Source: an uncultured Eubacteriales bacterium
Lineage (GTDB): Bacteria; Bacillota; Clostridia; Christensenellales; UBA1242
Direction: 5' to 3'
DNA length: 64,000 nucleotides
Assembly: GCA_948695535.1 (NCBI GenBank)
Contig: CAPRTS010000007.1
Location: 3,164 to 67,163 of the forward strand
Shown here: positions 48,111 through 64,000 of the stretch, in pieces
How positions within the stretch are numbered: the first letter of the stretch is position 1
Layout: every line of letters starts with the position of its first letter
The notes under the pieces: model-generated
What the model was told of the DNA's origin: nothing
Database searches by the model: none
Seen by the model: the letters and a program-made list of their open reading frames with translations, nothing else
Program-made: the position numbers and the translations under genes

Positions 48111-50306
48111 ATGATTATCGAAGCCGTCGTCGCGTCCGTGGTGTACAGCAACGCCGAAAGTGGCTATACCGTGTTACGGTTGGACAACAATTTGACTGCC
48201 GTCGGGATTGCACCGTTCGCCGCGGTCGGGGCGGGGTATCGTTTCGTTGGCGAGTTCGTGAACAACGCTAAGCACGGCAAACAATTCGCCTTTAAGGAAA
48301 TCACGTTGTTGCCACCCGACACGGAAGCCAAAATTTTGGCGTTCTTGGGCGGTGGCTTATTACCCGGAGTAGGCCCCGCGACCGCGCGCAAAATTGTGCA
48401 ACGCTTCGGCGCGCAAACGTTAGACATAATTGCCAACGACCCGCAAGCCTTGTCGCAAGTGCGGGGTATTTCGCCCGTTAAAGCCCAAACCATTGCCGCG
48501 AACTACCGCAGTATCCGTCAAATGCAAGACGTAATGATGTGGTTGTACCGTTTTGAAATCAGTTTGAACTTGGCACAAAAAATCTACCAATATTACGGCG
48601 ACGACACGATTGCCACCGTCGCCAAAAACCCGTACGCGCTGATTGAAACCATTGACGGGATTGGCTTCACCACCGCCGACAACATGGCCAAAACGCTGGG
48701 CGTCGCCTATAACGGCACGTTCCGTGTGCGGGCGGGGATAGTGCACACTTTGAAGGTCAGCGCCGAAACCGACGGGCACACTTACGTGACCTTGCCCGAT
48801 TTGGTCGGCAAGGTTTGTCACTTGTTGCGCATTAAAATGGCAGAGTTAACCCCGACCTTTAACACGATTATCAACGAGTTATGCATGGATCGTGTCGTGG
48901 TGCCGGTCACTATTGACGGTGAGCAAGGTATCCAGTTAATCCGCTTCTTTAACGCCGAAAAATCCATCGCGCAAAAAATCCGCTTGCTGATGCAAGAGCC
49001 GAAAACCCCCGCGCGCGTGGACGAGTTAATCGCCCATTACGAGCAGTTGCGGGGGATAACTTTCCACGCGACCCAAAAGCAGGCCATCAAACAAGCGGTC
49101 AGTGGTGGCGTCACGGTGATCACCGGGGGGCCCGGCACGGGGAAGACGACGATTATCAACGCAATTTTGTACATTAACCAAGCCAACGAGTTGACAACCC
49201 AGTTGTTGGCGCCGACGGGGCGGGCGGCCAAGCGTATGGAAGAGGCTACGGGACAGCAGGCGATGACGATTCACCGTTGCTTGGATATGGATTACAAAAT
49301 GGGCGCGGGCAAGTTTACTTACGACGACCCGAACAACTTTATCCGGCAAGACATGGTGATTGTCGACGAAGTTTCCATGTGCGATTGTCTACTGACGGCG
49401 TCGTTATTGCGGAAAATCTTGGTTGGCACGAAGGTGGTCTTCATCGGCGACATTGACCAGTTGCCCTCGGTGGGGGCGGGAAACGTCTTGGCCGATATCA
49501 TTGATTCGGGCGTGGTGCCGACAACGCGTTTGACCCAAATTTACCGCACAGCCGAAAACGCCACGATTGCCGTTAACGCTCACCGCATCAACAATGGTGA
49601 AATGCCGTATCTCGATAACAAAAGCAGTGACTTCTTTTATTGCAATGTGGAAACACCAGATTTAATTAAAGATGAAATATTGGGGTTGTGTTTAACACGA
49701 TTACCACAATATCTTGGGGTTGATCGTAATAAAGTGCAAGTTTTGGCGCCGATGAAGTTGGGCGCGGCCGGGGTTATCAATTTGAACCAATGCTTGCAAG
49801 CGGCCTTAAACCCACCTGCCCCCAACAAGGACGAATACACTTATGGTAGCACTGTATTTCGTTTGGGTGATCGCGTGATGCATACGGTTAATAACTATCG
49901 CCAAGAATGGACGAAAAATCACGAAACCGGCAAAGGGATTTTTAATGGCGATATTGGTAAAATTGTTGCCATCAACGCGGCGAACGGGGAAATTACCGTG
50001 GAATTGGAAGACGGTCGGGTCACGATTTACCCGCGCACCGAACTGAATGCGTTAACTTTATCTTACGCAATTACCGTTCACAAAAGCCAAGGCTGCGAAT
50101 TTGACGTGGTGGTTATCCCCGTGGTGGCGGGGGCGTACATGATTATGACCCGTAATTTGCTGTATACGGCGGTAACGCGCGCTAAACGACTGGTAGTCTT
50201 GGTCGGGAAAACGGAAAATATCCAAAAAATGGTGGCGAACACTTACACCAAAAAACGCAACAGTTGCTTGAATAAATATTTACAATATTTTACCGATATG
50301 GCATAA
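48111..50306 (+). CDS. recD2: RecD2-type (YrrC-like) SF1B ATP-dependent DNA helicase
   Basis: 731 aa with Walker A GGPGTGKTT, Walker B MVIVDEVSM, and VFIGDIDQLPSVGAGNV. The C-terminus has SYAITVHKSQGCEF and LLYTAVTRAK. Confidence 0.9.
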   Translation: MIIEAVVASVVYSNAESGYTVLRLDNNLTAVGIAPFAAVGAGYRFVGEFVNNAKHGKQFAFKEITLLPPDTEAKILAFLGGGLLPGVGPATARKIVQRFGAQTLDIIANDPQALSQVRGISPVKAQTIAANYRSIRQMQDVMMWLYRFEISLNLAQKIYQYYGDDTIATVAKNPYALIETIDGIGFTTADNMAKTLGVAYNGTFRVRAGIVHTLKVSAETDGHTYVTLPDLVGKVCHLLRIKMAELTPTFNTIINELCMDRVVVPVTIDGEQGIQLIRFFNAEKSIAQKIRLLMQEPKTPARVDELIAHYEQLRGITFHATQKQAIKQAVSGGVTVITGGPGTGKTTIINAILYINQANELTTQLLAPTGRAAKRMEEATGQQAMTIHRCLDMDYKMGAGKFTYDDPNNFIRQDMVIVDEVSMCDCLLTASLLRKILVGTKVVFIGDIDQLPSVGAGNVLADIIDSGVVPTTRLTQIYRTAENATIAVNAHRINNGEMPYLDNKSSDFFYCNVETPDLIKDEILGLCLTRLPQYLGVDRNKVQVLAPMKLGAAGVINLNQCLQAALNPPAPNKDEYTYGSTVFRLGDRVMHTVNNYRQEWTKNHETGKGIFNGDIGKIVAINAANGEITVELEDGRVTIYPRTELNALTLSYAITVHKSQGCEFDVVVIPVVAGAYMIMTRNLLYTAVTRAKRLVVLVGKTENIQKMVANTYTKKRNSCLNKYLQYFTDMA

Positions 50307-50315
50307 TGGAAAGTA

Positions 50316-51317
50316 ATGGACATACTTAACGAACTGGCAAAAATTAAGGACGAAAACGCTTTGACGGCTTTCCACAAAAAGTACTTGTCGAAAACAGGTG
50401 AATTGACCGCACAATTACAGAATTTGAAAAATCTACCCGCTGACCAACGGGCCACGGAAGGTAACCGCATCAACGAACTTAAACGCAATGTTGAACGCGA
50501 ATTTTTCCGTAAGCAAACCGCGTTGCGCGAACAAGCCATTAACGATCAGTTGCGGGCAGATCCATTAGTCGATATTACTATTCCGGCAATTAACGTTCCA
50601 CAGGGCAGTTTGCACCCGATTACTTATTTAATCCGTCGTGTGACCGAAATCTGTCGTTCAATGGGGTTCTTGGTGGTGGACGGTAACGAAGTGGTGACCG
50701 AATACGAAAATTTTGACGCGGTCAATGTGCCGGCCGATCACCCGGCTCGTGATATGCAGGACACGTTCTGGCTGACTAACGGTAAATTGTTAAAGACCCA
50801 AACTTCGGCCATGCAAAACGAAATTTTACGCAAGCACGGCCCCGTAGTTTCGGCGATTTTTCCTGGCCGTTGTTACCGTAACGAAGCCACGGACGCCAGT
50901 CACGAATTTGCCTTTTTTCAATGCGAAGGCATGATGGTGGGGGAGAATATCTCGATCGCGAATTTGATTTACGTGATGAAAAAAATCTTATCGGGCGTTT
51001 ACGGTAAAGATATTGATGTGCGTTTGCGGCCAGGCTACTTTCCGTTTGTTGAACCCGGGTTTGAACTGGACGCCAGTTGTCCGTTTTGTGAAGGAAAAGG
51101 GTGCAGTGTTTGCAAACATTCGGGGTGGATCGAATTTTGTGGTTGTGGAATGATTCACCAAAACGTATTACGCCAAGCCAACGTTGATCCGGAACGGTAC
51201 CAAGGTTTTGCTTTTGGTTTCGGCTTGACGCGGATGGCAATGATGCAGTACGCCATTAGCGACATTCGCCTACTGAACTCGGGTAACTTAGAATTTTTGC
51301 GAGGTATCAAACGATGA
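50316..51317 (+). CDS. pheS: Phenylalanine--tRNA ligase alpha subunit
   Basis: Class II aaRS motifs: HPARDMQDTFW, RCYRNEATDASHEFAFFQCEG and GFAFGFGLTRM. Confidence 0.95.
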   Translation: MDILNELAKIKDENALTAFHKKYLSKTGELTAQLQNLKNLPADQRATEGNRINELKRNVEREFFRKQTALREQAINDQLRADPLVDITIPAINVPQGSLHPITYLIRRVTEICRSMGFLVVDGNEVVTEYENFDAVNVPADHPARDMQDTFWLTNGKLLKTQTSAMQNEILRKHGPVVSAIFPGRCYRNEATDASHEFAFFQCEGMMVGENISIANLIYVMKKILSGVYGKDIDVRLRPGYFPFVEPGFELDASCPFCEGKGCSVCKHSGWIEFCGCGMIHQNVLRQANVDPERYQGFAFGFGLTRMAMMQYAISDIRLLNSGNLEFLRGIKR

Positions 51318-53629
51318 AAATTTCGGTTAATTGGTTAAATGATTATGTTGATTTGTCGGGAATTTCCGCTCAGGAAATTGCGGCTAAGTTGACGCAAATT
51401 ACCTGCGAAGTGGAGGAAGTTATTTCGGTTGGTCGGGGACTAGACACGGTAGTGGTGGGCAAAATATTAACGTGTGAAAACCACCCACAAAGTAACCACT
51501 TACACCTATTGACCGTAGATGTTGGCCGTAAACAACCACTACCCATTGTTTGCGGGGCACCGAACGCGCGGGCGGGCTTAACTGTGGCAGTTGCTACCGT
51601 CGGTACGGTAATGCCTAATGGCATGCAAATCGAAGCCGTTAAACTGCGTGGTTATGACAGTTGTGGTATGTGTTGTTCCTATGCCGAGTTAGGCTACCAA
51701 GAAGACAACGATGGAATTATCGAATTGCCCGCTACCACCAAAATTGGCACCCCGATTACCGCGGTTTTACCGGGCTTGGTTGATGATATAATTGATATTG
51801 ATAATAAAAGTATTACTAATCGTCCTGACCTTTGGGGACATTATGGTATCGCTCGTGAATTGGCGGTAATCTTTGACCGTCCGTTGCGTGCGATTAACAC
51901 AACGAACTTACAAGCCTATAATAATTTACCGCCATTAAGCATTAAAATTGAAAATGACTATTGTTTAAGTTACGGTGCAATTAAAGTTGCCCGGGTTGGT
52001 GGTTATGCGTCACCCGCTTTAATCCAAAATCGCTTGTATAAGTTGGGACATAACAGCCACGGTTTGTTGGTGGACTTAACCAATTACATAATGTTGGCGT
52101 TTGGTAACCCATTGCACGCGTTTGACGCGAACAAAATGGGAAAAATCAGTATTGGCGCCGTGCCGTCGGGAACTGAATTTACCACTTTGAAAGACAATCA
52201 AATTACCGCCACTAAGGACATGTTGTTTGTTAAAGCCAACGGTAAGCCCGTGGCCTTGGCCGGTATTATGGGCGGTAAGAACAGCGAGATTACTGATGCT
52301 ACCACCGACGTAATTTTTGAAATTGCAACTTTTGATGCCGCGAATGTGCGTCGCACTTCGGTAACGGTGGGCATTCGCAGTGACGCCAGTATGCGTTACG
52401 AAAAAGCATTGGATCCGGAAACAAATTGGCTGGCGGCGGCAGAATTATTGCGTCTGTTAAAAAAATACGCACCACAAGCTGCTGTGGTTTCGTCCTTTAC
52501 GCGCGTGATGAACGCCAAGGCTGAACGCCCCGTGCAAAAAATTGTAGTGTCCAAACAACGCTTATGCAGTTTTACCGGGGTAGACTTTACCGACCAGTAC
52601 GACTTGGTGCAACGCAAGTTAACGGCCTTGGGTTTCAAGCCGAAAATTACCGCTAAGGACATTACGGTAACGGTGCCGTCGTGGCGCAGTTGGAAAGATA
52701 TTACCACGCCTGCCGATGTGATCGAAGAAATTATCCGTAACTATGGTTACCAAAATATTTTACCAGTAGCACCTACTGCGGAATTATCTCCGTTGCCACA
52801 TGATCCCTATGCCACGGCCAAAGACCAAATCAAAGATACTTTGGCGTGGCAATACGCATTTAGTGAAGTGCATACCAATCTTTGGTACGACACTAAGGCC
52901 TTAAAACGGATGGGGTTAACGCCGGCTACTTACGCCACAATCGCGAACCCGTTTAATCAGGACGATAACCAAATTCGCAGTGCTATGTTGCCCAGTATGC
53001 TGACCGTAGCAGTGAACAATAAGTTACAAACGGCGGTACGTGTCTTTGAGATTGGGCGCGTGATTAACGCGGACGGCAGTGAAAGTGAACACTTGGCCGG
53101 GGTAGTGGTGGCGATGCCTTATCTCGCGGTAGCACAACTGTTAACGGCGACGTTCGACCGCTTGGGTTTCAAGTTGGACTATAAACTTAAGACTTTGAAC
53201 GAACCAACTTTTCACCCGACTAATAATGCCGAAATTTGGTGCAATGGTCAGTTAGTTGGCAAAATTGGTATCATTCATCCGCACGTGATTACTTACGCCC
53301 CGGCTGTTGGTTTTGAAATCAATTTGTCGGCCATCGCGTGGGGCAGTGTTCCGCAAAATTTAGCACCCGTGTTGTCCAAATTCCCCAAAACGGAACTGGA
53401 TTTCACCTTCGTTTGGGACGGCATTTATGCCGAGTTGGCAACTATTATGGCGGGTTTCAAACACCCGTACGTGACGGGACAACGTTTGACGGCCGTGTAC
53501 GAAAACCGTTATACCTTGACCTTTACCGTTTCTTGTCGTGAAAAAACACTTGACAAAGAAGAAATTAAGCAGATTCACCAAGAAATTGTTGACTTTGCTG
53601 CTAAAAATAGTGTACATCTTTATCAGTGA
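51314..53629 (+). CDS. pheT: Phenylalanine--tRNA ligase beta subunit
   Basis: 771 aa. It has the N-terminal tRNA-binding OB domain (MKISVNWLNDYV...VVVGKILTCENHPQSNHLHLLTVDVG) and B3/4 and B5 domains. It overlaps pheS by 4 nt. Confidence 0.95.
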   Translation: MKISVNWLNDYVDLSGISAQEIAAKLTQITCEVEEVISVGRGLDTVVVGKILTCENHPQSNHLHLLTVDVGRKQPLPIVCGAPNARAGLTVAVATVGTVMPNGMQIEAVKLRGYDSCGMCCSYAELGYQEDNDGIIELPATTKIGTPITAVLPGLVDDIIDIDNKSITNRPDLWGHYGIARELAVIFDRPLRAINTTNLQAYNNLPPLSIKIENDYCLSYGAIKVARVGGYASPALIQNRLYKLGHNSHGLLVDLTNYIMLAFGNPLHAFDANKMGKISIGAVPSGTEFTTLKDNQITATKDMLFVKANGKPVALAGIMGGKNSEITDATTDVIFEIATFDAANVRRTSVTVGIRSDASMRYEKALDPETNWLAAAELLRLLKKYAPQAAVVSSFTRVMNAKAERPVQKIVVSKQRLCSFTGVDFTDQYDLVQRKLTALGFKPKITAKDITVTVPSWRSWKDITTPADVIEEIIRNYGYQNILPVAPTAELSPLPHDPYATAKDQIKDTLAWQYAFSEVHTNLWYDTKALKRMGLTPATYATIANPFNQDDNQIRSAMLPSMLTVAVNNKLQTAVRVFEIGRVINADGSESEHLAGVVVAMPYLAVAQLLTATFDRLGFKLDYKLKTLNEPTFHPTNNAEIWCNGQLVGKIGIIHPHVITYAPAVGFEINLSAIAWGSVPQNLAPVLSKFPKTELDFTFVWDGIYAELATIMAGFKHPYVTGQRLTAVYENRYTLTFTVSCREKTLDKEEIKQIHQEIVDFAAKNSVHLYQ

Positions 53630-54669
53630 ACGAGAACATCTTTTACATTGATGCTAAGACCAAAATTGTCGATTTTTTGACGACAGAATTTTCTGGTACG
53701 TTCCCGATTAAACTACAAAACCGTTTCTTGAATTTTTTCCCGCAAATTACCAATTATGAAGAAGAAGGGCATAAGTATAAGCCCGCGATTTTCTTTACTA
53801 ATAACATTGATGCGGTTGTTAAAAATGTGCCCAATGCGACCAAAATCGTGCTGTTTAACGATATTAACGAAAACATGTTTGCTTCTCGTTTGAAGAGTTT
53901 GATTCCGTTTTGTAACTTGAATTGGTGTGTTTACGTTTCCGTTTCGGACGAGAAAACCGAGTATGGTATTTTCCGGATTATCAATAGTATCAAGGACGAA
54001 AGTTTGGAAACAGTGTTGTTTAAGTCACAAACATTGTTAGACAAGAGCAACAAACTGTTTGGTATTTATGTTTATGCCGAAAATACTTGGACCATTACGA
54101 TGCGCAGTTTAAAAGGGCGCATGGTGAACGTTAATTTCGCGTTAGACATTAAAGTGGTTAATAACTGGGAAGACGAAATTAAAGAATTTGTTGATGCCAG
54201 TTTTGCTAAATTGCGTACCAGTTCCAAAAAACTGCAAGACATTAAGAACATGTACAAAAATATCTTTAAAAATGTGATGCGTTCAATTGATGGTACCATT
54301 TGTGTGGTCGTTGATTCTGAATACAAGCCCGATGCTTTTTTTGAAGATGGTATTTGGCTGACGGAACCGATTAACTTGTCGAAACTATTTGCCCAAACCA
54401 ACCAATATAACGAACAAAAATTGACGACCATTGCGGATGTGTTTATGACCATGTTGAATTTTGACGGCATAACCGTAGTGGATAACATGGGACAAATTCG
54501 GGCGTATAACGTGTTTATTGAAACTAACTTGAAAGTTGCTGGCAATATTATGGGCGGTGCCAGAAAACGGGCTGCCTATACAATTATTAACAGTAAACGC
54601 CCTAATATCATTGGTGTTTATTTCCAAAGCCACGAAGGCGAAATGTTTTACGCACCCGTTAAAAGGTGA
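53626..54669 (+). CDS. Protein with a divergent diadenylate-cyclase (DAC/DisA_N) fold C-terminal domain and an unknown N-terminal domain
   Basis: The GTG start overlaps the pheT stop (GTGA). The C-terminal half aligns to the DAC pattern: DGTICVVVD, FDGITVVDNMGQIRAYNVFI, GGARKRAAYTIIN and IIGVYFQSHEGEMFY. The DGA motif is changed to DGI, and RHR to RKR. Confidence 0.5.
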   Translation: MNENIFYIDAKTKIVDFLTTEFSGTFPIKLQNRFLNFFPQITNYEEEGHKYKPAIFFTNNIDAVVKNVPNATKIVLFNDINENMFASRLKSLIPFCNLNWCVYVSVSDEKTEYGIFRIINSIKDESLETVLFKSQTLLDKSNKLFGIYVYAENTWTITMRSLKGRMVNVNFALDIKVVNNWEDEIKEFVDASFAKLRTSSKKLQDIKNMYKNIFKNVMRSIDGTICVVVDSEYKPDAFFEDGIWLTEPINLSKLFAQTNQYNEQKLTTIADVFMTMLNFDGITVVDNMGQIRAYNVFIETNLKVAGNIMGGARKRAAYTIINSKRPNIIGVYFQSHEGEMFYAPVKR

Positions 54670-56144
54670 AAAATTTTCTGTAAGCGTGGCATAATGTCGG
54701 GGAGGTGTTCGCAACCCAACGGGTGTGGCCACTGGTCATTACCAATTTCAACAGTAAACGCGGGTATGCCCATTCTTAAAGCCAAGTAATCAGTTAACCC
54801 GCCGTACGAATTTACGGACATGACGGCGCGATATTGAGTTAACTCGGCAATGTTTTGGGCAGTGGTTTGGTCGGCCACCCGACTGTAATAGATAACTTCA
54901 CCTTTACTGTGTAAGGCTAGGCTAAGCGTTGGGTGGAAAGTGTTGATTAGTCGTAACAAGGCTTTGGTTTCCGGTTCACTGTGGGGGCGTCGCCCAATGT
55001 AGTTAGCAGGAGCGGGAGTAGTTAGGTTGCTGTGACCTTGCCCCCAGCCCGCGTCGTAATTGACATTCAAATCAACTGCGCGGGCGTTAGCTTTCCATAG
55101 ACTAAAATCAGTACTACCAAGATTGATACGTTGTAAGCGTTGGTGATAACGGCGGGGTACAGTGGTTAACCCTTGGGTAGCCAACGCGACACCATCGGGG
55201 TTACAATTTGGTACTAAAATTACCGCTACATCGTGGGGTAGATCACGGCACAACGGCAAAAGACCGTGGACAGCATTAACAGTCAACCACTCGCGCGCGT
55301 GCATACCACCGGTAATTAACAGCCGTTGTTTAGCCGATGGCTCGCCGAATAGGTAGGCAATCAGTGGCCGGTGTAAAACACTGTAACCAATAATATTGAT
55401 TGAATCTAAGTATTGTAGGTCATGATAATCGCGTACGCCGTCGGGGAGTGTATCTGTTCCGCAAAAGTCTGTGCCGATTTGTAAATGTTGACGTCCAAAA
55501 TGTTTAATAAAGTACAAATAGTGTTTTACAAAATCACAAAAACCACAATGGGTTGTGTTTTTAGTTAAAAACTTGGGTACTAAACATAAACCTACGGTGC
55601 CACCAGATTTGATGATAGTGCGCACTTGGCGGTTGGTTAAATTGCGTGGGTGGTGGCAAAGTGTGTTTAAAGCGGTGTGGGTGCAAAGCATGGGTTGTGT
55701 GGTTACGCGGGCAAACTGGTAGAAACTACGACGGTTTAAGTGGGCAGTGTCAATTTGAATACCTGCATCTTCCAAAGCCTTTATGACTTGGTACCCCCAC
55801 CGGGTAATGCCGCGGCGACTTTTGGCACCACCCGCCAAGGAGTTAGCGGCGTTCCACGTTAAACCGACGCTGTGGGGGCGCAATTTGAGAAAAGCCTCCA
55901 AATTATCAGGCGTTAAAAACCAAGCGTCTTCAATGTGTAAACGACATACGGGATAGGCAGAATCGCGGTTTAATTTATCTATCAAGCGCTTTTTGACTTT
56001 GATGGTGGCCATCGGGTCAGGCAGGCGGGTAGTCCAAACCGATAACCAAATTTCACTAACACCGTCGCTTTTGGCTTTTTGTAAATAAGTGCGCAACTTG
56101 CTGGCGGGTAGGGCTAACAATGCGTCATTATGTAAATCAATCAT
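54648..56144 (-). CDS. Fusion of an M19 (renal-type) dipeptidase domain and an M14 (gamma-D-Glu-mDAP peptidase-like) carboxypeptidase domain
   Basis: N-terminal half: IDLHNDAL, VGLTWNAANSLAGG, IQIDTAHLN, CTHTALNTLCHHPRNL (M19 pattern). C-terminal half: LITGGMHAREWLT (the HxxE zinc site), VPNCNPDG, VDLNVNYDAGWG, PHSEPET, ALHSKGEVIY (M14 pattern). There is no signal peptide. Confidence 0.8.
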   Translation of the reverse strand: MIDLHNDALLALPASKLRTYLQKAKSDGVSEIWLSVWTTRLPDPMATIKVKKRLIDKLNRDSAYPVCRLHIEDAWFLTPDNLEAFLKLRPHSVGLTWNAANSLAGGAKSRRGITRWGYQVIKALEDAGIQIDTAHLNRRSFYQFARVTTQPMLCTHTALNTLCHHPRNLTNRQVRTIIKSGGTVGLCLVPKFLTKNTTHCGFCDFVKHYLYFIKHFGRQHLQIGTDFCGTDTLPDGVRDYHDLQYLDSINIIGYSVLHRPLIAYLFGEPSAKQRLLITGGMHAREWLTVNAVHGLLPLCRDLPHDVAVILVPNCNPDGVALATQGLTTVPRRYHQRLQRINLGSTDFSLWKANARAVDLNVNYDAGWGQGHSNLTTPAPANYIGRRPHSEPETKALLRLINTFHPTLSLALHSKGEVIYYSRVADQTTAQNIAELTQYRAVMSVNSYGGLTDYLALRMGIPAFTVEIGNDQWPHPLGCEHLPDIMPRLQKIFHLLTGA

Positions 56145-56169
56145 TGGTTATGCTTATGCGGGGAAGCAG

Positions 56170-56199
56170 TTGCTAAACACTACTAAATTGTGGTATATT
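56170..56199 (+). promoter_or_regulatory. Candidate promoter for ssrA
   Basis: TTGCTA (56170-56175), an 18-nt spacer ending in TGG, then TATATT (56194-56199). This is an extended -10 type, about 25 nt upstream of the mature 5' end. Confidence 0.45.
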
Positions 56200-56223
56200 G
56201 ATAATAGGACTAACACAAGCCGT

Positions 56224-56586
56224 GGGGGCGATTGGCTTCGACGGTTGGCGGGCGGTTCGTTAAGCATACCGGCGGGGAAACCATACGTTAATTGGTTTCA
56301 AAAAGACAAATGCAAGTCCCAAAAATGCAAACTTGGCTTTGGCTGCGTAAGTAGTTAAAGAACCAACGAACGACGCGTTTAACCCTTTTAACGATCGTTC
56401 GCCAACAAAGGGTGAATGGGACAGTATCTCCTTGGTTAACGGAAATATTGTTCGGCACCAAAGTTAACCCTAACCGTATTACTTTGTCGTTAATTTAGCG
56501 GTTGGTAAATAAGATAACGACTATGTATGTAGAAGTACGAACCAGAAACCAATCGGACCCGGGTTCAATTCCCGGCGTCTCCACCA
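56224..56586 (+). ncRNA. ssrA: tmRNA (transfer-messenger RNA)
   Basis: The 5' end GGGGGCGATTGGCTTCGACGG pairs with the 3' end CGTCTCCACCA, including the G3:U pair. The T-arm is CCCGGGTTCAATTCCCGG, and the CCA is encoded. The tag reading frame is GCA AGT CCC AAA AAT GCA AAC TTG GCT TTG GCT GCG TAA (56312-56350), which encodes ASPKNANLALAA*. Confidence 0.9.
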
Positions 56587-58120
56587 CAACAGGGGTATAC
56601 GCACACCTTTTTGAAAGAGAAATCGCTTTGACGGTTTCTTTTTTGTTTGTATTGTTTATTTCATCGTTTCCGTCAGGGTAATCGGGGAAGATTAAGTTCA
56701 TCAGCAGTTCTTCTTTTTGTCCGCTTTTTAGATGAAATAAAATTTTTATTTTGTCTTCATATAGAATTACGCGGTAGATTAGCGTGTTAATTAACGCCTT
56801 GCGATTTTGGAAATTGTCATAATCAAGGTTGCGGAAGTGCTGTAACCATTGCCGAATATCAGCGTAACTATAATCAATTTGCATAGCTTTTTCGGTATCA
56901 ATTGTCGCGGTCAGTTCTTTGTTTTCTGTCTCCAATTTTTCAACCTGTGCCAAAATGGCGTCGGTGGCTCGGCCGTGCATTAACGCTTGCATGAGGTTGT
57001 CGATGGACTTTTGATTAGACGCGATCAAGTTCTCTAAACGTTTAATCTCGCTGTCATTTTGTTCCGCTTTAATGAGTGTGTAAGTCTCGGCGGCGACCAT
57101 GTCGATAAACTCATCGGTTAGAGTGTGAACGATTTCCTGCACAACGGCGTCTTCAATCTCTTTTTTACGCACAGCACGTTTGTCGCATTGACGCGATGGA
57201 AGCACATTAACACAGCGATAATAATGGTGCAATTTACCACTTTTGCTGGTCGCACTGATTCCCGTCATCTTGGCGCCACATTTGCCACAAATCAATTTAT
57301 CGGAGAGTAGGTAAGGAACTTTCGCTTTACCACGAGCCGGTGCGGTGGCGTATTTAGCCAGCACCTGTTGTACTTGCTCAAATAATTCATCATCAATAAT
57401 TCGCGGAATTCCACCGTCGGTTTCTTGACCTTGAAAAATATATTTGCCTAAATATCGGCGGTTGCCGAAAATACTGCGAAAACTGTTCTTGTTCCACTTC
57501 GCTCCGTGGGCGGTTTTAATGCCACGTTCATTTAGGGAATTACCAATTTGCACATAGTTATATCCATTGGCCAACATTTGAAACATTTGCTTTACAATCG
57601 GGGCAGTGTTCTCGTCAATAACAATATTTTTCTCGGTGTCAACCTTGTAGCCGAGCGGTACAGAGCCACCAAAGAATTTGCATTTAGACGCCGAGATCGC
57701 AATCCCGCGTTTGATCTTTTGAGCGAGTTCAGCGGAGTAGTATTCCGCCATACTTTCTAAAACGCCTTCAATCAAAATACCACTGGCATCATCGGTAATG
57801 TTCTCTTTGGCGGATAATACCCGTACACCATTTTTCTTTAACTTAGATTTGTAAATTGCACTATCATAGCGGTTACGAGCAAAACGGTCTAATTGGTAGA
57901 CAATGACAAATTGAAAAGCCTTTTTCTTGCTGTCTTCAATCATTTGTAAAAAGTCGGGGCGTTTGTCCGTTGTCCCGGTTAAGTCACGGTCAATGTATTC
58001 GTGAATAATGTGCAAATCACTGCGTTTGGCGAATGCGTAACATTCGGCCAACTGTCCTTCGATAGACTGTTCGTTTTGTCCGTGCGAACTGAACCGTGCG
58101 TAAATTACTGCATTTTTCAT
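56495..58120 (-). CDS. Large serine recombinase (integrase)
   Basis: The N-terminal resolvase catalytic domain is AVIYARFSSHGQNEQSIEGQ, with Ser in the YxRxSS context. A recombinase domain follows, then the zinc ribbon CGKCGAKMTG...YYRC and a coiled-coil region. ATG 58120 is preceded by AAGGAG. The last ~31 codons are antisense to the ssrA 3' domain. Confidence 0.9.
   Translation of the reverse strand: MKNAVIYARFSSHGQNEQSIEGQLAECYAFAKRSDLHIIHEYIDRDLTGTTDKRPDFLQMIEDSKKKAFQFVIVYQLDRFARNRYDSAIYKSKLKKNGVRVLSAKENITDDASGILIEGVLESMAEYYSAELAQKIKRGIAISASKCKFFGGSVPLGYKVDTEKNIVIDENTAPIVKQMFQMLANGYNYVQIGNSLNERGIKTAHGAKWNKNSFRSIFGNRRYLGKYIFQGQETDGGIPRIIDDELFEQVQQVLAKYATAPARGKAKVPYLLSDKLICGKCGAKMTGISATSKSGKLHHYYRCVNVLPSRQCDKRAVRKKEIEDAVVQEIVHTLTDEFIDMVAAETYTLIKAEQNDSEIKRLENLIASNQKSIDNLMQALMHGRATDAILAQVEKLETENKELTATIDTEKAMQIDYSYADIRQWLQHFRNLDYDNFQNRKALINTLIYRVILYEDKIKILFHLKSGQKEELLMNLIFPDYPDGNDEINNTNKKETVKAISLSKRCAYTPVVVETPGIEPGSDWFLVRTSTYIVVILFTNR
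56562..56606. repeat. Predicted attL (attB left arm + core + attP right arm)
   Basis: GGTTCAAT (56562-56569), N10, TCCACCA (56580-56586), N10, ATACGCACAC (56597-56606). Confidence 0.55.
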
Positions 58121-58180
58121 TTTTTACTCCTTTTTTGCCTTAAAAGGCAATGGCTCGCCATTGCTGCTTGGTTACCCGTC

Positions 58181-58285
58181 CCACTGGCGACAGCAAGGAC
58201 AGTCAAGGGTCTGCCACACAGTGGACGGCGTTTTATGCCTAACGGGAGATAAATCGCCGCCCTTGACGGTGCTTGCCGCCAGTGG
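58181..58285. repeat. GC-rich nested inverted repeats (long imperfect hairpin) upstream of the serine recombinase gene
   Basis: The outer arms CCACTGGCG (58181-58189) and CGCCAGTGG (58277-58285) pair. The inner arms GTCAAGGG (58202-58209) and CCCTTGAC (58260-58267) pair. Smaller hairpins, such as CCACACAGTGG, lie inside. Confidence 0.6.
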
Positions 58286-58421
58286 TAGCAGAGACAAAAC
58301 ATTGTTTTACAGTAGATTTAATTCACTGATTTAATTTGTGGGTTTTTGTCGTAATCTTGTGTAACTTGACGATTATAAGTAATTTATTGTAAAACCGTGA
58401 ACTTTTGCCTTCGCTCCTGCC

Positions 58422-58541
58422 TATAGTTAGGGGGTAAATTTTATAAAAACCTTGATTTTTACCACTTCTCGTGGGTATAGGTAGGGGCTATTAAAAAATA
58501 AAACCTTAACACCCCTGTCCCTAAGTGTTTATAAGTAGGGG
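58422..58541 (+). repeat. Three direct repeats TATA(G/A)(T/G)TAGGGG spaced exactly 54 bp apart
   Basis: TATAGTTAGGGG at 58422-58433, TATAGGTAGGGG at 58476-58487 and TATAAGTAGGGG at 58530-58541. The first two copies are also followed by a related ATAAAA(A)CCTT segment. Confidence 0.85.
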
Positions 58542-58638
58542 ATCGTGTGGGCAAGGCGGCTGCGCCGCCATTGCCCACGGGCGTGTATAGTATTACCACG
58601 CCACCCCGTAACACTGTAACAACTTAAAAGGAGTGAAA

Positions 58639-58836
58639 ATGAGTAAAACAAGTCAGTTACAATCATTACCAAGTCCATTTGACGGCATTTCGGTTATTTA
58701 TTTTGATGATGAAAACCGCAATCATCATGTGCGGTTACCAGCAGATAAAAAACTAGCCAATCAGTTGGCTAAATTGATTTATCATGATGCCAAAATCGCA
58801 ATCAGTGAAAATTACCAAAAGGAGCAAACAAAATGA
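58639..58836 (+). CDS. Small (65-aa) protein translationally coupled to the tyrosine recombinase; possible accessory or DNA-binding factor
   Basis: AAAGGAG (58627-58633) lies 5 nt upstream of ATG 58639. The stop overlaps the recombinase ATG (ATGA). I recognised no family. Confidence 0.5.
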   Translation: MSKTSQLQSLPSPFDGISVIYFDDENRNHHVRLPADKKLANQLAKLIYHDAKIAISENYQKEQTK

Positions 58837-59768
58837 ATTATTTAACTTGGTTAAACGAGTGGTTGGAAAATTATGTAAAGCCAACTCATAAGGCACGGAC
58901 TTACGAGCGTTATCAACAAATTGTTAATACGCACATATTGACAAATTTAGGGGATTATGACTTAAACGCAATCACGCCCTTACTTCTGCAGAAGTACATT
59001 ACCAACTTGTTGCAACATGGCAATCGACTAACTGGACAGGCATTATCCGCGAATACTGTCAATGGTATTATCTCCATTTTACAGTCGTCATTGAAAATGG
59101 CGTATACTTTGGGTTTGTGTCGTGAATACGTCGGTAACAAAATTGTGCGTCCCAAAATCACCGAAAAGCAAGTTGCGTGTTTCAGTTTGACAGAGCAAAA
59201 AAAAATGGAGCAATACATTTTAACCAGTAAAAAATACAAGCTTTATGGCGTGATAATTTGTTTGTATACGGGACTGCGGATTGGCGAATTGTTAGCGTTA
59301 GAGTGGGCCGATCTCGATTTTAGTAAAGGCATTTTGACGGTATCCAAAACCGCATACGATAACCACGGCCAACGCTATATTGACCGCCCGAAAACTGCTA
59401 ATTCGCATCGTATGATTCCGCTGCCCAAACAATTAGTTCCCGTGTTGAAAGACTTGAAAAGAAATACGCAATCTAACTGGGTAGTGGTGGACAAGAATAA
59501 CCAGCCAGTATCGGTCCGCAGTTACCAACGCAGTTTTGAATTATTGCAATACAAATTAAAAATTGCTCATAAAGGTTTCCACGCTTTACGGCATACTTTC
59601 GCCACGCGAGCGTTAGAGTGCGGTATGGACGTAAAATCACTTTCCGAAATTCTTGGACACAAAAACACTAATATAACACTAAATCGTTACGTACATTCGT
59701 TGTTGGAACACAAGCAAGAAATGATGTCAAAATTGGGTAAAATTTTGACATCCGCGCCAGAGAAATGA
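58833..59768 (+). CDS. Tyrosine recombinase (phage-integrase/XerD-like family), candidate invertase
   Basis: 311 aa with an N-terminal SAM-like core-binding domain. Catalytic motifs: TGLRIGELLAL (Arg), HALRHTFATRAL (HxxR) and LGHKNTNITLNRYVH (His, Tyr). Confidence 0.9.
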   Translation: MNYLTWLNEWLENYVKPTHKARTYERYQQIVNTHILTNLGDYDLNAITPLLLQKYITNLLQHGNRLTGQALSANTVNGIISILQSSLKMAYTLGLCREYVGNKIVRPKITEKQVACFSLTEQKKMEQYILTSKKYKLYGVIICLYTGLRIGELLALEWADLDFSKGILTVSKTAYDNHGQRYIDRPKTANSHRMIPLPKQLVPVLKDLKRNTQSNWVVVDKNNQPVSVRSYQRSFELLQYKLKIAHKGFHALRHTFATRALECGMDVKSLSEILGHKNTNITLNRYVHSLLEHKQEMMSKLGKILTSAPEK

Positions 59769-59797
59769 ATAAACTGAGAAAACTGTTATGAAATTGT

Positions 59798-59824
59798 GTT
59801 CATCAAATATTTTAATCGGTGTAC
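59798..59824. promoter_or_regulatory. Candidate recombinase core site L (arm-spacer-arm)
   Basis: GTTCATCAA-ATATTTTAA-TCGGTGTAC. The first 19 nt are the exact reverse complement of 59934-59952. Confidence 0.6.
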
Positions 59825-59838
59825 ATCTTACTGTAAAA

Positions 59839-59868
59839 ACTATACCATAACCACCCATAAATTGTAAA
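59839..59868 (-). promoter_or_regulatory. Strong promoter-like element inside the candidate invertible segment, currently facing away from the methyltransferase operon
   Basis: On the minus strand: TTTACA (59868-59863), an 18-nt spacer ending in TGG, then TATAGT (59844-59839). This is the extended -10 type. Confidence 0.5.
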
Positions 59869-59925
59869 TCTGTTATTAAAATTGTACATTTACACAACAT
59901 TTACCGCCACAAAATTCTAAGTTCT

Positions 59926-59952
59926 GTTCATCAATTAAAATATTTGATGAAC
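59926..59952. promoter_or_regulatory. Candidate recombinase core site R (arm-spacer-arm)
   Basis: GTTCATCAA-TTAAAATAT-TTGATGAAC has perfect 9-bp inverted arms. Its asymmetric 9-bp spacer is the reverse complement of the site L spacer. Confidence 0.6.
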
Positions 59953-59991
59953 AAAATTTTTTTATTGTGTGCATGAAATAGGAGTTTACAA

Positions 59992-60930
59992 ATGGCGAAT
60001 CAATCACTTAATAAGGCAAAAATTGAAAAAAACGATGAATTTTATACGTTGATGAGTGATATAGAAAATGAATTATCGCGCTATGATTTCGCTCAATTCA
60101 AAGATAAAATTGTTTATTGTAATTGCGATGATCCAACTTGGAGTAATTTTTTTAAATTTTTCACTAAATGGGGAAAACGCATGGGAATTAAAGAAGTCCA
60201 TTTTACAAATTACGCTAATACAAAAAGAAAATGGAATAAACAATTAACACTTTTTGAAGCGCTTGACTTAAAAGAAAGTGCAGAAGATGATAGATGTGGT
60301 ACTGCACATCACTGGACATTTTATCCAGATTCTAATCGAATTGTTAAAAAAAGTCTTAAGGGGAACGGCGATTTCCGCAGTCCTGAGTGTATTGAAATCT
60401 TAAAAAGGTGCGATATTGTTGTGACTAATCCACCATTTAGTATTTTTAATGACTTTCTAAAGTTACTAATTGAATATAAAAAATATTATTTAGTCATTAG
60501 CGATGATAATAAACTATCTAATATTGATATTTTCCCTTTGATTAAAGATAATAAACTTTGGTTGGGTTATACTCGTGTAAAAAAATTTTTGCAACCAGAC
60601 GGCACATATAAAACTTTTGGTAATAAATGTTGGTATACTAATTTAGAAGTAACCTACCGTAGGCAACCGATTGTCCTTCATGATCAAGACCTAACTCAAT
60701 TCAAAAAGTATGATAACTACAACGCTCTTGAAATTTCTGAAGTTAAGTATATTCCTGATGGATATTATGAGCCCATCGGATTACCAATAACATTTTTGCA
60801 TAAATTTTGTCCTGAGCAGTTTGAAATAGTTGGTATGTCTGGTGTTGATATAAAGATTAAGGGTGGACGATTTTATGTAAGTGGCAGACGCTTACAGCCA
60901 AGATTAGTTATTCAAAGGAGAAAAGCATAA
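59992..60930 (+). CDS. N6-adenine DNA methyltransferase (EcoRI-methylase-like family)
   Basis: The N-terminus is NDEFYTLMSDIENEL...IVYCNCDDP and the catalytic motif IV is VVTNPPFS. AGGAG lies 8 nt upstream of the ATG. Confidence 0.85.
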   Translation: MANQSLNKAKIEKNDEFYTLMSDIENELSRYDFAQFKDKIVYCNCDDPTWSNFFKFFTKWGKRMGIKEVHFTNYANTKRKWNKQLTLFEALDLKESAEDDRCGTAHHWTFYPDSNRIVKKSLKGNGDFRSPECIEILKRCDIVVTNPPFSIFNDFLKLLIEYKKYYLVISDDNKLSNIDIFPLIKDNKLWLGYTRVKKFLQPDGTYKTFGNKCWYTNLEVTYRRQPIVLHDQDLTQFKKYDNYNALEISEVKYIPDGYYEPIGLPITFLHKFCPEQFEIVGMSGVDIKIKGGRFYVSGRRLQPRLVIQRRKA

Positions 60931-60931
60931 G

Positions 60932-62008
60932 ATGCAATATCAGATCGCAATTAGAACAATTAAAGATTTGCTAAATGACAAGGTTTATTTAACCAATATT
61001 AATATGCAAAGGAAGTATATTTATAATCATGAACAGGCTTCGCATTTACTTGATAGTATCCAAAAGGGGATCCCAATCCCAGCAATTTATTTGTGGGATA
61101 ACTGTGATGGCACTTATGACGTATTAGATGGGAAACAGAGAATAACTGTCATGCGTTTATATGTTAATCCTAAATACTTACCTGGCGGTGTCCATAACTT
61201 TTTTATTGATCACATGAACAGTAATGATTTTGAAAGTTATCAAATCCCAGTGATTATTTGCTCGGGTACGGAAGAAGAAAAGGTTGAAACATTTAAGCGA
61301 ATCAATACAACTGCAGTGGCCTTAAAAGAGTTTGAAATTTACAATGCATTGTATCAAGGAACTTTTGTTGAAGAACTCGGTAACTGGGGTATTGGCTTAT
61401 CTCCAAATGAAGAATTATTCTTCGGCAAAAGTATTAGGGGTGAAAACTGTATCAGGGCAGTAAAATTATTTACCGAAAGACTAGAGGATTATTTTAAGCA
61501 CAATCGTAATCAGTCTTTTGTGAATGGTTTGAAGAAGCAAATTGATGTTCTGGTTAAAACCACACTTGATTTATTTAATGATTACGGAAATGATTATTAT
61601 ATTTTAGCCAAAATTGTACTTGAAAATATTAATAACAATTCGTTAATTGCCAGTTGGAAATTAAACCAAAAAACAATTAATGATTTGTTGGTAGAGTATG
61701 CTAATAATGGTGAATTAGCCAACGCTCCAAGTCGCGAAAGTTTTTATAAAGAATTATTGGGTTGCTATACAGTTACTGGGTTAGACGGTAAACGCTTCTT
61801 TACGAAAGATGATAAAAAAACTTTGTATGAAAAATTAAGTAAAGGACTAAGTAGCGGAAAAAGGATTTGCCCAACCTGTGGTAAAGAGTTTAGTTTTGAT
61901 CAATTTGAAGTTGACCACGTTTTACCTTGGAGCAAGGGTGGCAAGACGTGTTTGGCTAATGCGCAGTTATTATGCAAAAGCTGCAATGTAAAAAAAAGTA
62001 ATCAGTAA
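60932..62008 (+). CDS. DUF262 (ParB/GmrS-like) - HNH nuclease fusion
   Basis: N-terminus: IPIPAIYLW...VLDGKQRIT, a DGQQR-type DUF262 motif. C-terminus: CPTCGKEF...EVDHVLPWSKGGKTCLANAQLLCKSCNVKKSN, an HNH domain with two CxxC pairs. The gene starts 1 nt after the methyltransferase stop. Confidence 0.85.
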   Translation: MQYQIAIRTIKDLLNDKVYLTNINMQRKYIYNHEQASHLLDSIQKGIPIPAIYLWDNCDGTYDVLDGKQRITVMRLYVNPKYLPGGVHNFFIDHMNSNDFESYQIPVIICSGTEEEKVETFKRINTTAVALKEFEIYNALYQGTFVEELGNWGIGLSPNEELFFGKSIRGENCIRAVKLFTERLEDYFKHNRNQSFVNGLKKQIDVLVKTTLDLFNDYGNDYYILAKIVLENINNNSLIASWKLNQKTINDLLVEYANNGELANAPSRESFYKELLGCYTVTGLDGKRFFTKDDKKTLYEKLSKGLSSGKRICPTCGKEFSFDQFEVDHVLPWSKGGKTCLANAQLLCKSCNVKKSNQ

Positions 62009-62058
62009 TAAATACAAGGGACTTATAGATAAATAAAAATCGCTAATGATCTCTCACC

Positions 62059-63144
62059 CTAGAATGGCAGATAAAATTCGTCAGGTGAATTAATTTTCTC
62101 ATCAGAGGGCACATCTTCGAAAATACTTAATAACATATTGATTCTTTCTAATAATTCGTCATAACAGATAATACTTATAGAACGTAACTCATTCCTAAAA
62201 TTCTCAAAACTGTTCTTCGCATCTGGTGTAAGTGTGGAGTAATTACCAACCAACAAGATACAGTGAATGTTGTTTGCTTCTACATCTAATTTTGAATTAA
62301 CTTTAAGAGAATTAAATTCTTTATACAAGGAATCTTTTTGTGAAAGTAATTGTATTAAACTACCTGTTAGCTCGGTCGTAATTGGTAAAATCCCAGCACG
62401 ATATGAAGTATTTTGAGTTAGTGTAGTAACTGGCGTTTTTATCTCAATAATGGATACGTTTTTTGTTATCCCGTTTTGGTATATAAAATCAGGCTTTTTT
62501 CCACCATTAAAATCAAAACTCTTTCCGCCAACATAATGACATCCTTGCATAATCATATAGGGGGTGTTGAATAATTGTGATAGTATCCATGAGTTTTTCT
62601 CAAATAAAGGTTGCCAAAAGCCAACTTCGTCGCTGTTATTTAGATTATTTTTTATTTCTTCCTTAATTCGTTTAAGATATTCAATATTTAATGCCCAATT
62701 GATATTGGTTAAATCAACTGATTTTAATAACTTGACTAACTCTTCCTTGTTTTTTAGCAGTTCTTTGAACTTATCATATTCTTCATCTTTTAAGGTGTAA
62801 GTTACTTCTTCCCATGGTGTGTTCTTATCTTTTACGAGTTTGTATCTCTCAGTTAATGCTTGCCATAATTTGTATGTTTGGCTGCATGATAAGGCAAGCT
62901 CAAAACTTTCACCTGATTTAATCGACCTCTTGTTTAATGAGATAACATCATTAAAAGTGCTATCACTCTTTTTTACAGTATAGATGAACTTTCCACGTAA
63001 TTTTTCTTGATAGTTTTTTGGATTATTAATTTGTTGTAACTCAAAACGGACTTGGGAACGACCTGATTCGTCTAAAATAACAATTGGTGTAACATCGGCT
63101 GTAATGTATGATGTTGGTGTAATAGTAATTTCATTATTATCCAT
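62059..63144 (-). CDS. Shedu-like defence nuclease (DUF4263, PD-(D/E)xK fold)
   Basis: 361 aa. The C-terminal domain reads GGKKPDFIYQNGITKNVSIIEIKTP (D...ExK), followed by LIQLLSQKDSLY and HCILLVGNYSTL. This matches the DUF4263/SduA pattern. Confidence 0.7.
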   Translation of the reverse strand: MDNNEITITPTSYITADVTPIVILDESGRSQVRFELQQINNPKNYQEKLRGKFIYTVKKSDSTFNDVISLNKRSIKSGESFELALSCSQTYKLWQALTERYKLVKDKNTPWEEVTYTLKDEEYDKFKELLKNKEELVKLLKSVDLTNINWALNIEYLKRIKEEIKNNLNNSDEVGFWQPLFEKNSWILSQLFNTPYMIMQGCHYVGGKSFDFNGGKKPDFIYQNGITKNVSIIEIKTPVTTLTQNTSYRAGILPITTELTGSLIQLLSQKDSLYKEFNSLKVNSKLDVEANNIHCILLVGNYSTLTPDAKNSFENFRNELRSISIICYDELLERINMLLSIFEDVPSDEKINSPDEFYLPF

Positions 63145-63238
63145 GATTTATTGTAGCATATAATATTGTGAATGACTATTTAAGTGTGTAATGCTAACCT
63201 GACAATAGAAGTTGGTCCTATTAGCAATCAATATTGTA

Positions 63239-63289
63239 GTGTGCGTATTCAAGGCGTGCAGTTCCACCAAACGTACCAAAGATTGAACC
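63239..63289. repeat. Predicted attR (attP left arm + core + attB right arm)
   Basis: GTGTGCGTAT (63239-63248), N14, TCCACCA (63263-63269), N12, ATTGAACC (63282-63289). Confidence 0.55.
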
Positions 63290-63550
63290 TTTCAAGTTAA
63301 GGTAACGCCTTATGACCGGGAATTTTACCCCGGCGGGTTCTGTCACTGTGTGCCAGATAGCTCGCTCACTACGTTCGCTCGCTATCACTTCCCGCTATTT
63401 CTACCACAGACAAATAATCCAAAATTCGTCGCGTAGCGGAACTAGAATGTTATTTTATCGCATGTGTTTTATGCGTAGAACTGTTTGGGGATAGTAATGA
63501 AATTTTGCAGGTAATTTTTAGTGGCAGTAAAACGCCCGTTTCCGTAAATT

Positions 63551-63778
63551 ATGGGGAATAAACTGCGAACAAATGTTGCTGACCAATGGTATGCCTTACG
63601 CAATGCACCCAAAAAACGTAAATTCCAAAAATGGTGTCGCGAGAACAATATTTTTGGGCTTGACGTTGTTGGCAGCAAACGGGTTGACTATGACGCACTG
63701 CAACGTGATCTTCAAGGTGTCATAGCCGAAGTTGACGCCACCAATTTAGCGGCTGCTGACGAAAAGGGTAACGGCTGA
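63551..63778 (+). CDS. Hypothetical 75-aa protein
   Basis: An ORF with plausible composition (basic N-terminus, acidic C-terminus). I recognised no family and no clear RBS. Confidence 0.3.
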   Translation: MGNKLRTNVADQWYALRNAPKKRKFQKWCRENNIFGLDVVGSKRVDYDALQRDLQGVIAEVDATNLAAADEKGNG

Positions 63779-63798
63779 TTTTGCTCACGTTCTTTTCC

Positions 63799-63827
63799 TT
63801 GAATAATGGGTAGTTGTGTGCTATAAT
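63799..63827 (+). promoter_or_regulatory. Candidate promoter giving a near-leaderless transcript
   Basis: TTGAAT (63799-63804), a 17-nt spacer ending in TGC, then TATAAT (63822-63827). ATG 63837 lies only about 10 nt downstream. Confidence 0.4.
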
Positions 63828-63836
63828 ATTATTTGT

Positions 63837-64000
63837 ATGGATAACAGTAATAAGTTAAAACAATTCAACCAAACGGCGAACTTGCGACCGAAAGTTACGT
63901 TGCCGACGGCGGCAGAAATTGCACAAGTTCCTTATTTCAGTTACGAACTAACCGACTTCGCAATGTTCAGTGGCGCCCGTCAAGTCAGTGAATGTTACGA
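63837..64000 (+). CDS. 5' part of an unidentified gene running off the window
   Basis: Open frame MDNSNKLKQFNQTANLRPKVTLPTAAEIAQVPYFSYELTDFAMFSGARQVSECY... with no stop before the window end. It is absent from the ORF track because it is partial. Confidence 0.4.
   Translation, partial: MDNSNKLKQFNQTANLRPKVTLPTAAEIAQVPYFSYELTDFAMFSGARQVSECY

Follow-up and report, generated by a model that had tools for sequence, protein, structure and literature searches.

A predicted invertible promoter between a tyrosine recombinase gene and a Type II restriction-modification operon in an uncultured clostridial genome

Results

Gene content of the locus

The 64-kb stretch of DNA that was analysed, called the window throughout, carries a gene for a tyrosine recombinase followed by two inverted core sites that enclose a short segment, and then by a gene pair encoding a DNA methyltransferase and a nuclease. 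The positions of these features, and of the neighbouring genes that bear on their interpretation, are collected in Table 1.

Table 1. Annotated and predicted features at the recombinase locus, in window coordinates.
Feature	Position	Strand	Details
tmRNA gene	56224-56586	+	
Large serine recombinase gene	56495-58120	-	541 aa; overlaps the 3' end of the tmRNA gene
Tyrosine recombinase gene, presumed invertase	58833-59768	+	311 aa; reads towards the switch
Core site L	59798-59824	+	GTTCATCAAATATTTTAATCGGTGTAC; 27 bp
Core site L, outer arm	59798-59807		GTTCATCAAA
Core site L, overlap	59808-59814		TATTTTA
Core site L, inner arm	59815-59824		ATCGGTGTAC
Invertible segment (proposed)	59817-59933		117 bp differing between orientations; strand exchange proposed inside the flanking overlaps
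Predicted promoter	59839-59868	-	-35 TTTACA (59868-59863); 18-nt spacer; TG (59847-59846); -10 TATAGT (59844-59839)
Core site R	59926-59952	-	GTTCATCAATTAAAATATTTGATGAAC; 27 bp
Core site R, inner arm	59926-59935		GTTCATCAAT
Core site R, overlap	59936-59942		TAAAATA
Core site R, outer arm	59943-59952		TTTGATGAAC
Predicted junctions in the ON orientation			left AATATTTTAATTGATGAACAG; right GTACACCGATTAAAATATTTG
AGGAG (59980-59984) and ATG (59992) of the methyltransferase gene	59980-59994	+	would be the first gene served after inversion; leader of about 74 nt
EcoRI-methylase-family N6-adenine DNA methyltransferase gene	59992-60930	+	312 aa; PF13651, E=4.7e-83; PADLOC MTase_II, E=3.4e-74
GmrSD_N (DUF262) plus HNH nuclease gene, presumed restriction enzyme	60932-62008	+	358 aa; PF03235, E=3.8e-18; PF01844, E=2.4e-14
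Shedu SduA defence gene	62059-63144	-	PADLOC, E=1e-104; directly after the restriction-modification pair, in a stretch of 32-36% G+C

The protein encoded by the tyrosine recombinase gene matched PF00589 (E=2.8e-30, 105.8 bits against a cut-off of 27.1) and PF14659 (E=1e-13), and it consists of a core-binding (SAM-like) and a catalytic domain, the arm-binding domain being absent. Residues R149, K172, H250, R253, H276, and Y286 were invariant among 16 relatives, both the catalytic set and the reading frame are intact, and the nearest solved structure was the catalytic domain of Tn1549 Int (E=2e-20). Membership of the FimB/FimE family was rejected on the scores obtained with NF007370 and NF007371 (23.3 and 18.8 bits, with cut-offs of 222 and 221), and identity with XerC or XerD was rejected likewise (65 bits vs 335, and 50 bits vs 330, respectively). 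A single site of the dif type was discarded too, as two inverted sites directly adjoin the recombinase gene instead, and so was an integrase of prophage or plasmid origin, as no tblastn match in phage and plasmid collections exceeded 37% identity. A 67-aa ORF overlapping the recombinase start (58633-58836, plus strand) was considered as an accessory protein and set aside, since it was found in the nearest relative only. Between the two recombinase genes there is a 510-nt non-coding stretch (58121-58632) with GC-rich hairpins at 58140-58300 and 58541-58580, and four independent Logan contigs (L002, L003, L004, and L008) share a start at 58592, immediately to the right of the latter hairpin.

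On the other side of the core sites, the start codon of the nuclease gene lies 1 nt past the methyltransferase stop, and the DUF262-HNH protein matched PADLOC REase_II over its full length (E=3.6e-31). The pair, which the first-pass annotation had described as a restriction-like module, scores as a Type II methyltransferase and restriction enzyme, and by its gene content, with methyltransferase and nuclease encoded by separate genes of one operon, it would be classed as a Type II restriction-modification system. A variant of 334 aa of the restriction gene, seen in some contigs, was dismissed as a mere difference in gene calling because the DNA is identical. At the position of the Shedu gene, a sister strain (see below) carries a 247-aa ORF and a HATPase_c gene; thus, the cargo behind the switch varies.

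The overlap of the large serine recombinase gene with the 3' end of the tmRNA gene suggests a genomic island inserted in ssrA, and, as the G+C content falls from about 43% to 32% across the methyltransferase and nuclease genes, the switch would stand at the front of a small defence island. A search for another copy of the tmRNA 3' end was negative up to position 64000, and the island would therefore extend beyond the window. To the left of the tmRNA gene, a 347-aa ORF with no Pfam match (53626-54669, plus strand) adjoins an unusual 498-aa fusion of M19 dipeptidase and M14 carboxypeptidase domains (54648-56144, minus strand).

Core sites and enclosed segment

The two core sites lie within the arms (59791-59825 and 59925-59959) of an inverted repeat of 35 nt and 89% complementarity, which the repeat finder returned as the longest one in the region and also in positions 50000-64000. 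Inside it, the perfect 19-mer GTTCATCAAATATTTTAAT is present in the 64-kb window at 59798-59816 (plus strand) and 59934-59952 (minus strand) only, with up to two mismatches allowed, and the chance expectation for such a perfect pair was 0 in 100 shuffles. A scan of JGI metagenome contigs with this 19-mer returned 83 single unpaired matches from unrelated environments and no locus of the switch type. In the window's strain, the arms of site R form a perfect palindrome.

The first-pass annotation had already described two arm-spacer-arm sites with a perfect 19-bp inverted repeat, whose coordinates and letters are those given here, and a recombinase gene ending 30 bp to the left of site L, measured as 29 nt from the end of the ORF (59768). 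It had also proposed spacers of 9 bp that are exact reverse complements of each other; the letters are right, but the comparison of family sites presented below narrows the crossover region to 7 bp (TATTTTA), with arms of 10 nt.

In a consensus scan, the minus-strand TTTACA-18-TGgTATAGT was the top promoter-like match of the region (10/12), in agreement with the strong promoter pointing away from the methyltransferase that had been proposed, whereas the plus-strand TTGTAA-17-TACATT (59862-59890), previously judged as the weaker one, reached only 8/12 and fell below the scan threshold. In the orientation of the window, the predicted promoter is directed at the 3' end of the recombinase gene, a state called OFF hereafter. 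After inversion its -10 would occupy 59906-59911, giving a leader of about 74 nt, close to the 75 nt or so that had been anticipated between the flipped promoter and ATG 59992. Within the 117-bp segment no coding sequence is conserved, the promoter alone being so, and no hsd genes lie nearby; a Type I hsdS shuffling inverton was ruled out on these grounds. Small ORFs spanning the ON-state junctions gave no exact look-up match, and the OFF-state control ORFs were equally absent.

Two hairpins were predicted in this part of the locus. Site R together with the A4T7 that follows it (59926-59965) would form a terminator-like hairpin on the plus-strand transcript, followed by a U-run (-12.5 kcal/mol, z = -3.8), which is lost in the inverted sequence (-3.2 kcal/mol). 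This structure could block read-through from the recombinase gene in the OFF state only, and it is kept just as a lead because the difference between OFF and ON is absent in the sister strain. The other, at 59752-59723 on the minus strand, is a perfect 12-bp hairpin with a T-rich tail that lies within the recombinase gene at its 3' end and could end an antisense transcript made in the OFF state; as a conserved antisense terminator it was ruled out, with z below -1.5 in only 4 of 79 family genes. Rfam returned nothing relevant on 58100-60000 (E up to 1) or on 16 related loci (gathering threshold).

Orientation of the segment in the sister strain and in the window's strain

The sister strain encodes a recombinase (P0004) that is 81% identical to that of the window, and the two loci are syntenic over the stretch bounded by the peptidase and nuclease genes. 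Its segment was found in the window's orientation in L011, L014, L015, and L027, and in the opposite one in L012 and L013, these being independent assemblies from different samples. The flanks of L011 and L012 are 100% identical along 4946 nt on the left and 3861 nt on the right, and the 111 bp between the 23-bp repeats in one contig are the exact reverse complement of those in the other, which is direct evidence of a precise site-specific inversion in the sister strain. The site geometry had been interpreted beforehand as that of inversion, and the exactly reverse-complemented segment of these assemblies bears this out; a single orientation in all related genomes had been named as a finding that would speak against a switch, and both orientations were found in the sister strain, between identical flanks.

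For the window's own strain, all five contigs that span the switch are OFF and none is ON, and the strain is considered mostly OFF for this reason. Three Logan contigs with no mismatches to the window have an end in the switch region: L004 stops at 59816, and L009 and L010 begin at 59924 and 59934, respectively. In a de Bruijn simulation with k=31, the OFF sequence alone produced no branch in this region, whereas a mixture of OFF and ON produced branches, with unitig ends at 59816 and 59953, unitig starts at 59797 and 59934, and 59924 as the first position of the unitig that succeeds the 59953 break. All three observed contig ends match the predictions for the mixture, which points, as indirect but specific evidence, to the existence of ON molecules in three samples of the window's strain. 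Contigs in several data sets often terminate inside the left site, including four of recombinase P0007 and one of P0004, and an inversion switch accounts for such frequent breaks just after the recombinase gene.

In the window's strain, the perfect repeat measures 19 bp, compared with the 23 bp of the sister strain, and site R has an altered inner arm. With this shorter repeat and altered arm, switching could be slower in the window's strain.

A family of recombinases with adjacent inverted sites

Relatives of the recombinase, counted as clusters at 90% identity, number in the thousands: 7756 clusters had E values up to 1e-20 among 8000 candidates scored, most of them of 304-305 aa and 60-66% identical, and a scan of one genome per species identified at least 564 encoding loci. 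Their hosts are almost all uncultured Clostridia labelled as Christensenella, Christensenellaceae, Borkfalkiaceae, or Clostridia, with Pumilibacter intestinalis as a cultured species among them. Its strain CLA-AA-M10 (L097) has a family member whose switch is in the ON orientation, ahead of a gene of 1045 aa. The family survey was carried out on the best 80 of these loci.

An inverted repeat after the recombinase gene (at least 15/18, with a start under 120 nt from the stop codon and 110-150 nt between its arms) was detected in 43 of the 64 loci from different species that had enough downstream sequence, compared with 3 of 192 shuffles. About 10 of the 80 family contigs break off inside the left site, 20-36 nt past the recombinase stop. 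When the left sites of 41 loci were aligned by the dyad centre with the reverse-complemented right sites, the seven central positions were 98-100% identical between partners, and the adjacent ones 61% and 76%; this central identity with variable neighbours therefore delimits an overlap region of 7 bp, where homology between partners is required. The arms have the family consensus GTTCAyc.A / T.g.TGAAC. By their inverted arms and an overlap within the 6-8 bp range that is identical in both partners, the sites have the predicted layout of core sites for a tyrosine recombinase. Site sequences vary along with the recombinase across species, and two paralogous modules in one MAG have different overlaps (TAGCGTA in L029 and TAATCTA in L033), so that cross-recombination between them would be prevented.

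Most loci have left sites of the form GTACA...TGTAC and right sites of the form GTTCA...TGAAC, differing at position -11/+11, and hybrid sites, with GTACA and GTTCA arms combined, occur in ON-orientation loci; for most loci, one state would have two pure sites and the other two hybrid ones. The window presents three arms of the GTTCA type and one of the GTACA type. This alternation of pure and hybrid sites may constitute a built-in directional bias.

The segments of 44 loci were oriented by their best promoter and anchored at the -10. The sole feature conserved among them was TTGAcTTT, a 17-nt spacer, and tTtTGnTATAAT, that is, a predicted promoter TTGACT-17-TGnTATAAT, with 30-42 nt between the end of its -10 and the outer end of the site towards which it points. 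With ON and OFF called by the consensus promoter score (L060 and L092 being ambiguous), the promoter is directed towards the recombinase in 33 of the 44 loci and towards the cargo in the other 11. In nearly all loci, a co-directional ORF begins 0-120 nt past the right site. Among these first downstream genes, about 14 of 41 encode DNA methyltransferases (six N6_N4 / Type III, four MmeI-type, two C5, one EcoRI-type, and one Type III mod), several encode ResIII, SNF2, or DEAD helicases, and about 10 encode surface repeat proteins (Flg_new, LRR_5, Glug).

On the 5' side of the recombinase gene, a conserved GC-rich element was observed about 60-200 nt from the start codon in L030, L033, L035, L044, L046, L065, L067, L070, and other loci. 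It has a 12-nt closing stem (TGCGCTTGGCTT / AAGCCAAGCGCA) around variable hairpins and no Rfam match, and compensatory changes in the stem were present in L070, L079, and L088 (TGGCTTGTCTT / AAGACAAGCCA). The element, which may be a leader RNA controlling the invertase, is absent from the window and from the sister strain, where an ORF of 62-67 aa occupies its position.

Discussion

The locus is best read as an inverton of the fimS type, in which the recombinase flips a promoter segment and thereby gates the Type II restriction-modification operon, a reading to which we assign a probability of about 0.85. According to this model, the 311-aa recombinase would bind the two inverted core sites, each made of a 7-bp overlap between two 10-nt arms, and would exchange strands within the identical asymmetric overlaps TATTTTA and TAAAATA, with the consequent flip of a segment of about 120 bp; inversion is the product expected from asymmetric overlaps in sites of opposite orientation. 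In the OFF state of the window, the extended -10 sigma-70 promoter would direct transcription to the left, into the 3' end of the recombinase gene, and no promoter reaching the scan threshold would serve the operon, some expression in this state being conceivable through read-through from the recombinase gene. In the ON state, about 74 nt would separate the promoter from ATG 59992 downstream of it, and transcription, with a start expected near 59918 in ON coordinates, would run through site R into the operon. The population would thus be made up of a minority of cells with the restriction-modification system and its methylation pattern and a majority without them, and turning on a Type II pair should endanger a cell whose genome is unmethylated. 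We infer that the recombinase adjoining the sites is the catalyst of inversion, that the promoter is active, and that expression of the operon follows its orientation.

This reading has to be weighed against others. The switch could have become fossilised in the window's strain, its repeats persisting as remnants that serve only as a recombinase-binding or terminator element, with an operon that is either silent or driven by read-through. The OFF orientation of every spanning contig, the shrinkage of the perfect repeat to 19 bp, and a site R that is now palindromic and folds in the OFF orientation into the U-run hairpin of -12.5 kcal/mol would all fit such a loss, which we nevertheless consider unlikely, because three contigs identical to the window break precisely where only a mixture of OFF and ON makes graph branches, and because the 7-bp overlaps, the outer arms, the recombinase frame, and its catalytic residues are all intact. 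It is also very unlikely, in our opinion, that the main target is the recombinase itself, through antisense RNA to the 3' end of its gene, with any effect on the operon being secondary. The cargo found right after the right site is co-directional in nearly all loci and belongs to classes typical of phase variation, and the 12-bp hairpin with a T-rich tail that could terminate the antisense transcript is not conserved in the family, even if the promoter does point towards the recombinase gene in most family loci (33/44). In any case, an antisense effect on the recombinase and control of the operon are compatible and do not exclude each other.

Hardly credible to us is the remaining possibility, namely that the repeats bound a MITE as its terminal inverted repeats or that the two orientations result from an assembly artefact. 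A short AT-rich segment between inverted repeats has indeed the appearance of a MITE, but these repeats differ in sequence from species to species and yet are always found directly after the recombinase, at constant spacing and with an internal promoter, and the 64 kb contain no further copy. As for an artefact, the data are mostly metagenome assemblies; however, the repeats are shorter than the assembler k-mers, and the identical, exact inversion was recovered in independent assemblies from different samples.

Invertible promoters are a familiar class of switch, and large-scale surveys of them exist. In the fimS switch of E. coli, FimB and FimE act on a 314-bp segment with 9-bp repeats, and the cargo consists of fimbriae. 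The locus described here shares with it one or more upstream recombinase genes reading towards the switch, a short invertible segment with one promoter, a predicted one in the window, a co-directional operon downstream, the use of a tyrosine recombinase, and ON/OFF phase variation as the expected outcome. In contrast, its segment is of about 120 bp with repeats of 19-23 bp, its recombinase falls outside the FimB/FimE family, and its cargo is a restriction-modification system instead of fimbriae. The E. coli fimS/FimB/FimE switch is included in a review of the field (PMC11868660).

In Bacteroides fragilis, the tyrosine recombinases Tsr15, Tsr16, and Tsr19 have adjacent invertible promoters (PMC11761130, PMC4747536). 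The likeness here is that of gut anaerobes with many paralogous modules, each composed of a recombinase and its own inverton and controlling the neighbouring operon, whereas the present family is found in Clostridia MAGs, belongs to another recombinase clade, and often has DNA methyltransferases or restriction genes as cargo, compared with the mainly surface structures controlled by the Tsr proteins. RecV of Clostridioides difficile, with its switches at cwpV, flgB, cmrRST, and pdcB (PMC6837544, PMC9286219, PMC5903667), is also a Firmicute tyrosine recombinase that inverts short promoter or leader segments, but it acts in trans on several distant switches, whereas the recombinases of this family adjoin their own sites and the overlaps of paralogues differ. 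The Type I hsdS "epigenetic invertons" (PMC7672463) and the Type III mod phasevarions based on repeat tracts (PMC11868660) resemble the proposed switch in that a clonal population becomes mixed in restriction and methylation, the hsdS switch being likewise driven by a tyrosine recombinase encoded next to it. However, hsdS shuffles coding sequence and mod slips repeats, whereas in the window coding sequence would stay unaffected and a promoter would be flipped before both genes of a complete Type II system.

Invertible promoters have already been suggested as a means of controlling methyltransferases, and phase variation of Type I and Type III systems is established. Full-text literature searches, whose scope did not include the survey of Jiang et al. 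2019, returned no paper for Christensenellaceae combined with invertible elements, and none for promoter inversion combined with Type II restriction. The size and uniformity of the clade are the part of the finding most likely to be new. Tentatively, and at somewhat less than even odds, we propose that these recombinases form a very large, apparently undescribed clade of cis-acting invertases, mostly from uncultured Christensenellales-like Clostridia, in which each recombinase and its own single-promoter cassette of 110-150 bp would constitute a portable switch module placed before restriction-modification and defence genes or surface genes, and in which the pure and hybrid states of the arms could bias the switch towards OFF.

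If the activity of the recombinase is confirmed, a protein of about 305 aa, two sites of 27 bp, and one promoter could make a possible tool, and natural variants with different overlaps are numerous and may be mutually orthogonal. For the organisms themselves, the proposed switch means that, in uncultured gut Clostridia, most cells may hold complete restriction-modification systems in a silent state while a few express them, and that, in defence repertoires and methylomes inferred from MAGs, the presence of a gene does not necessarily mean its activity.
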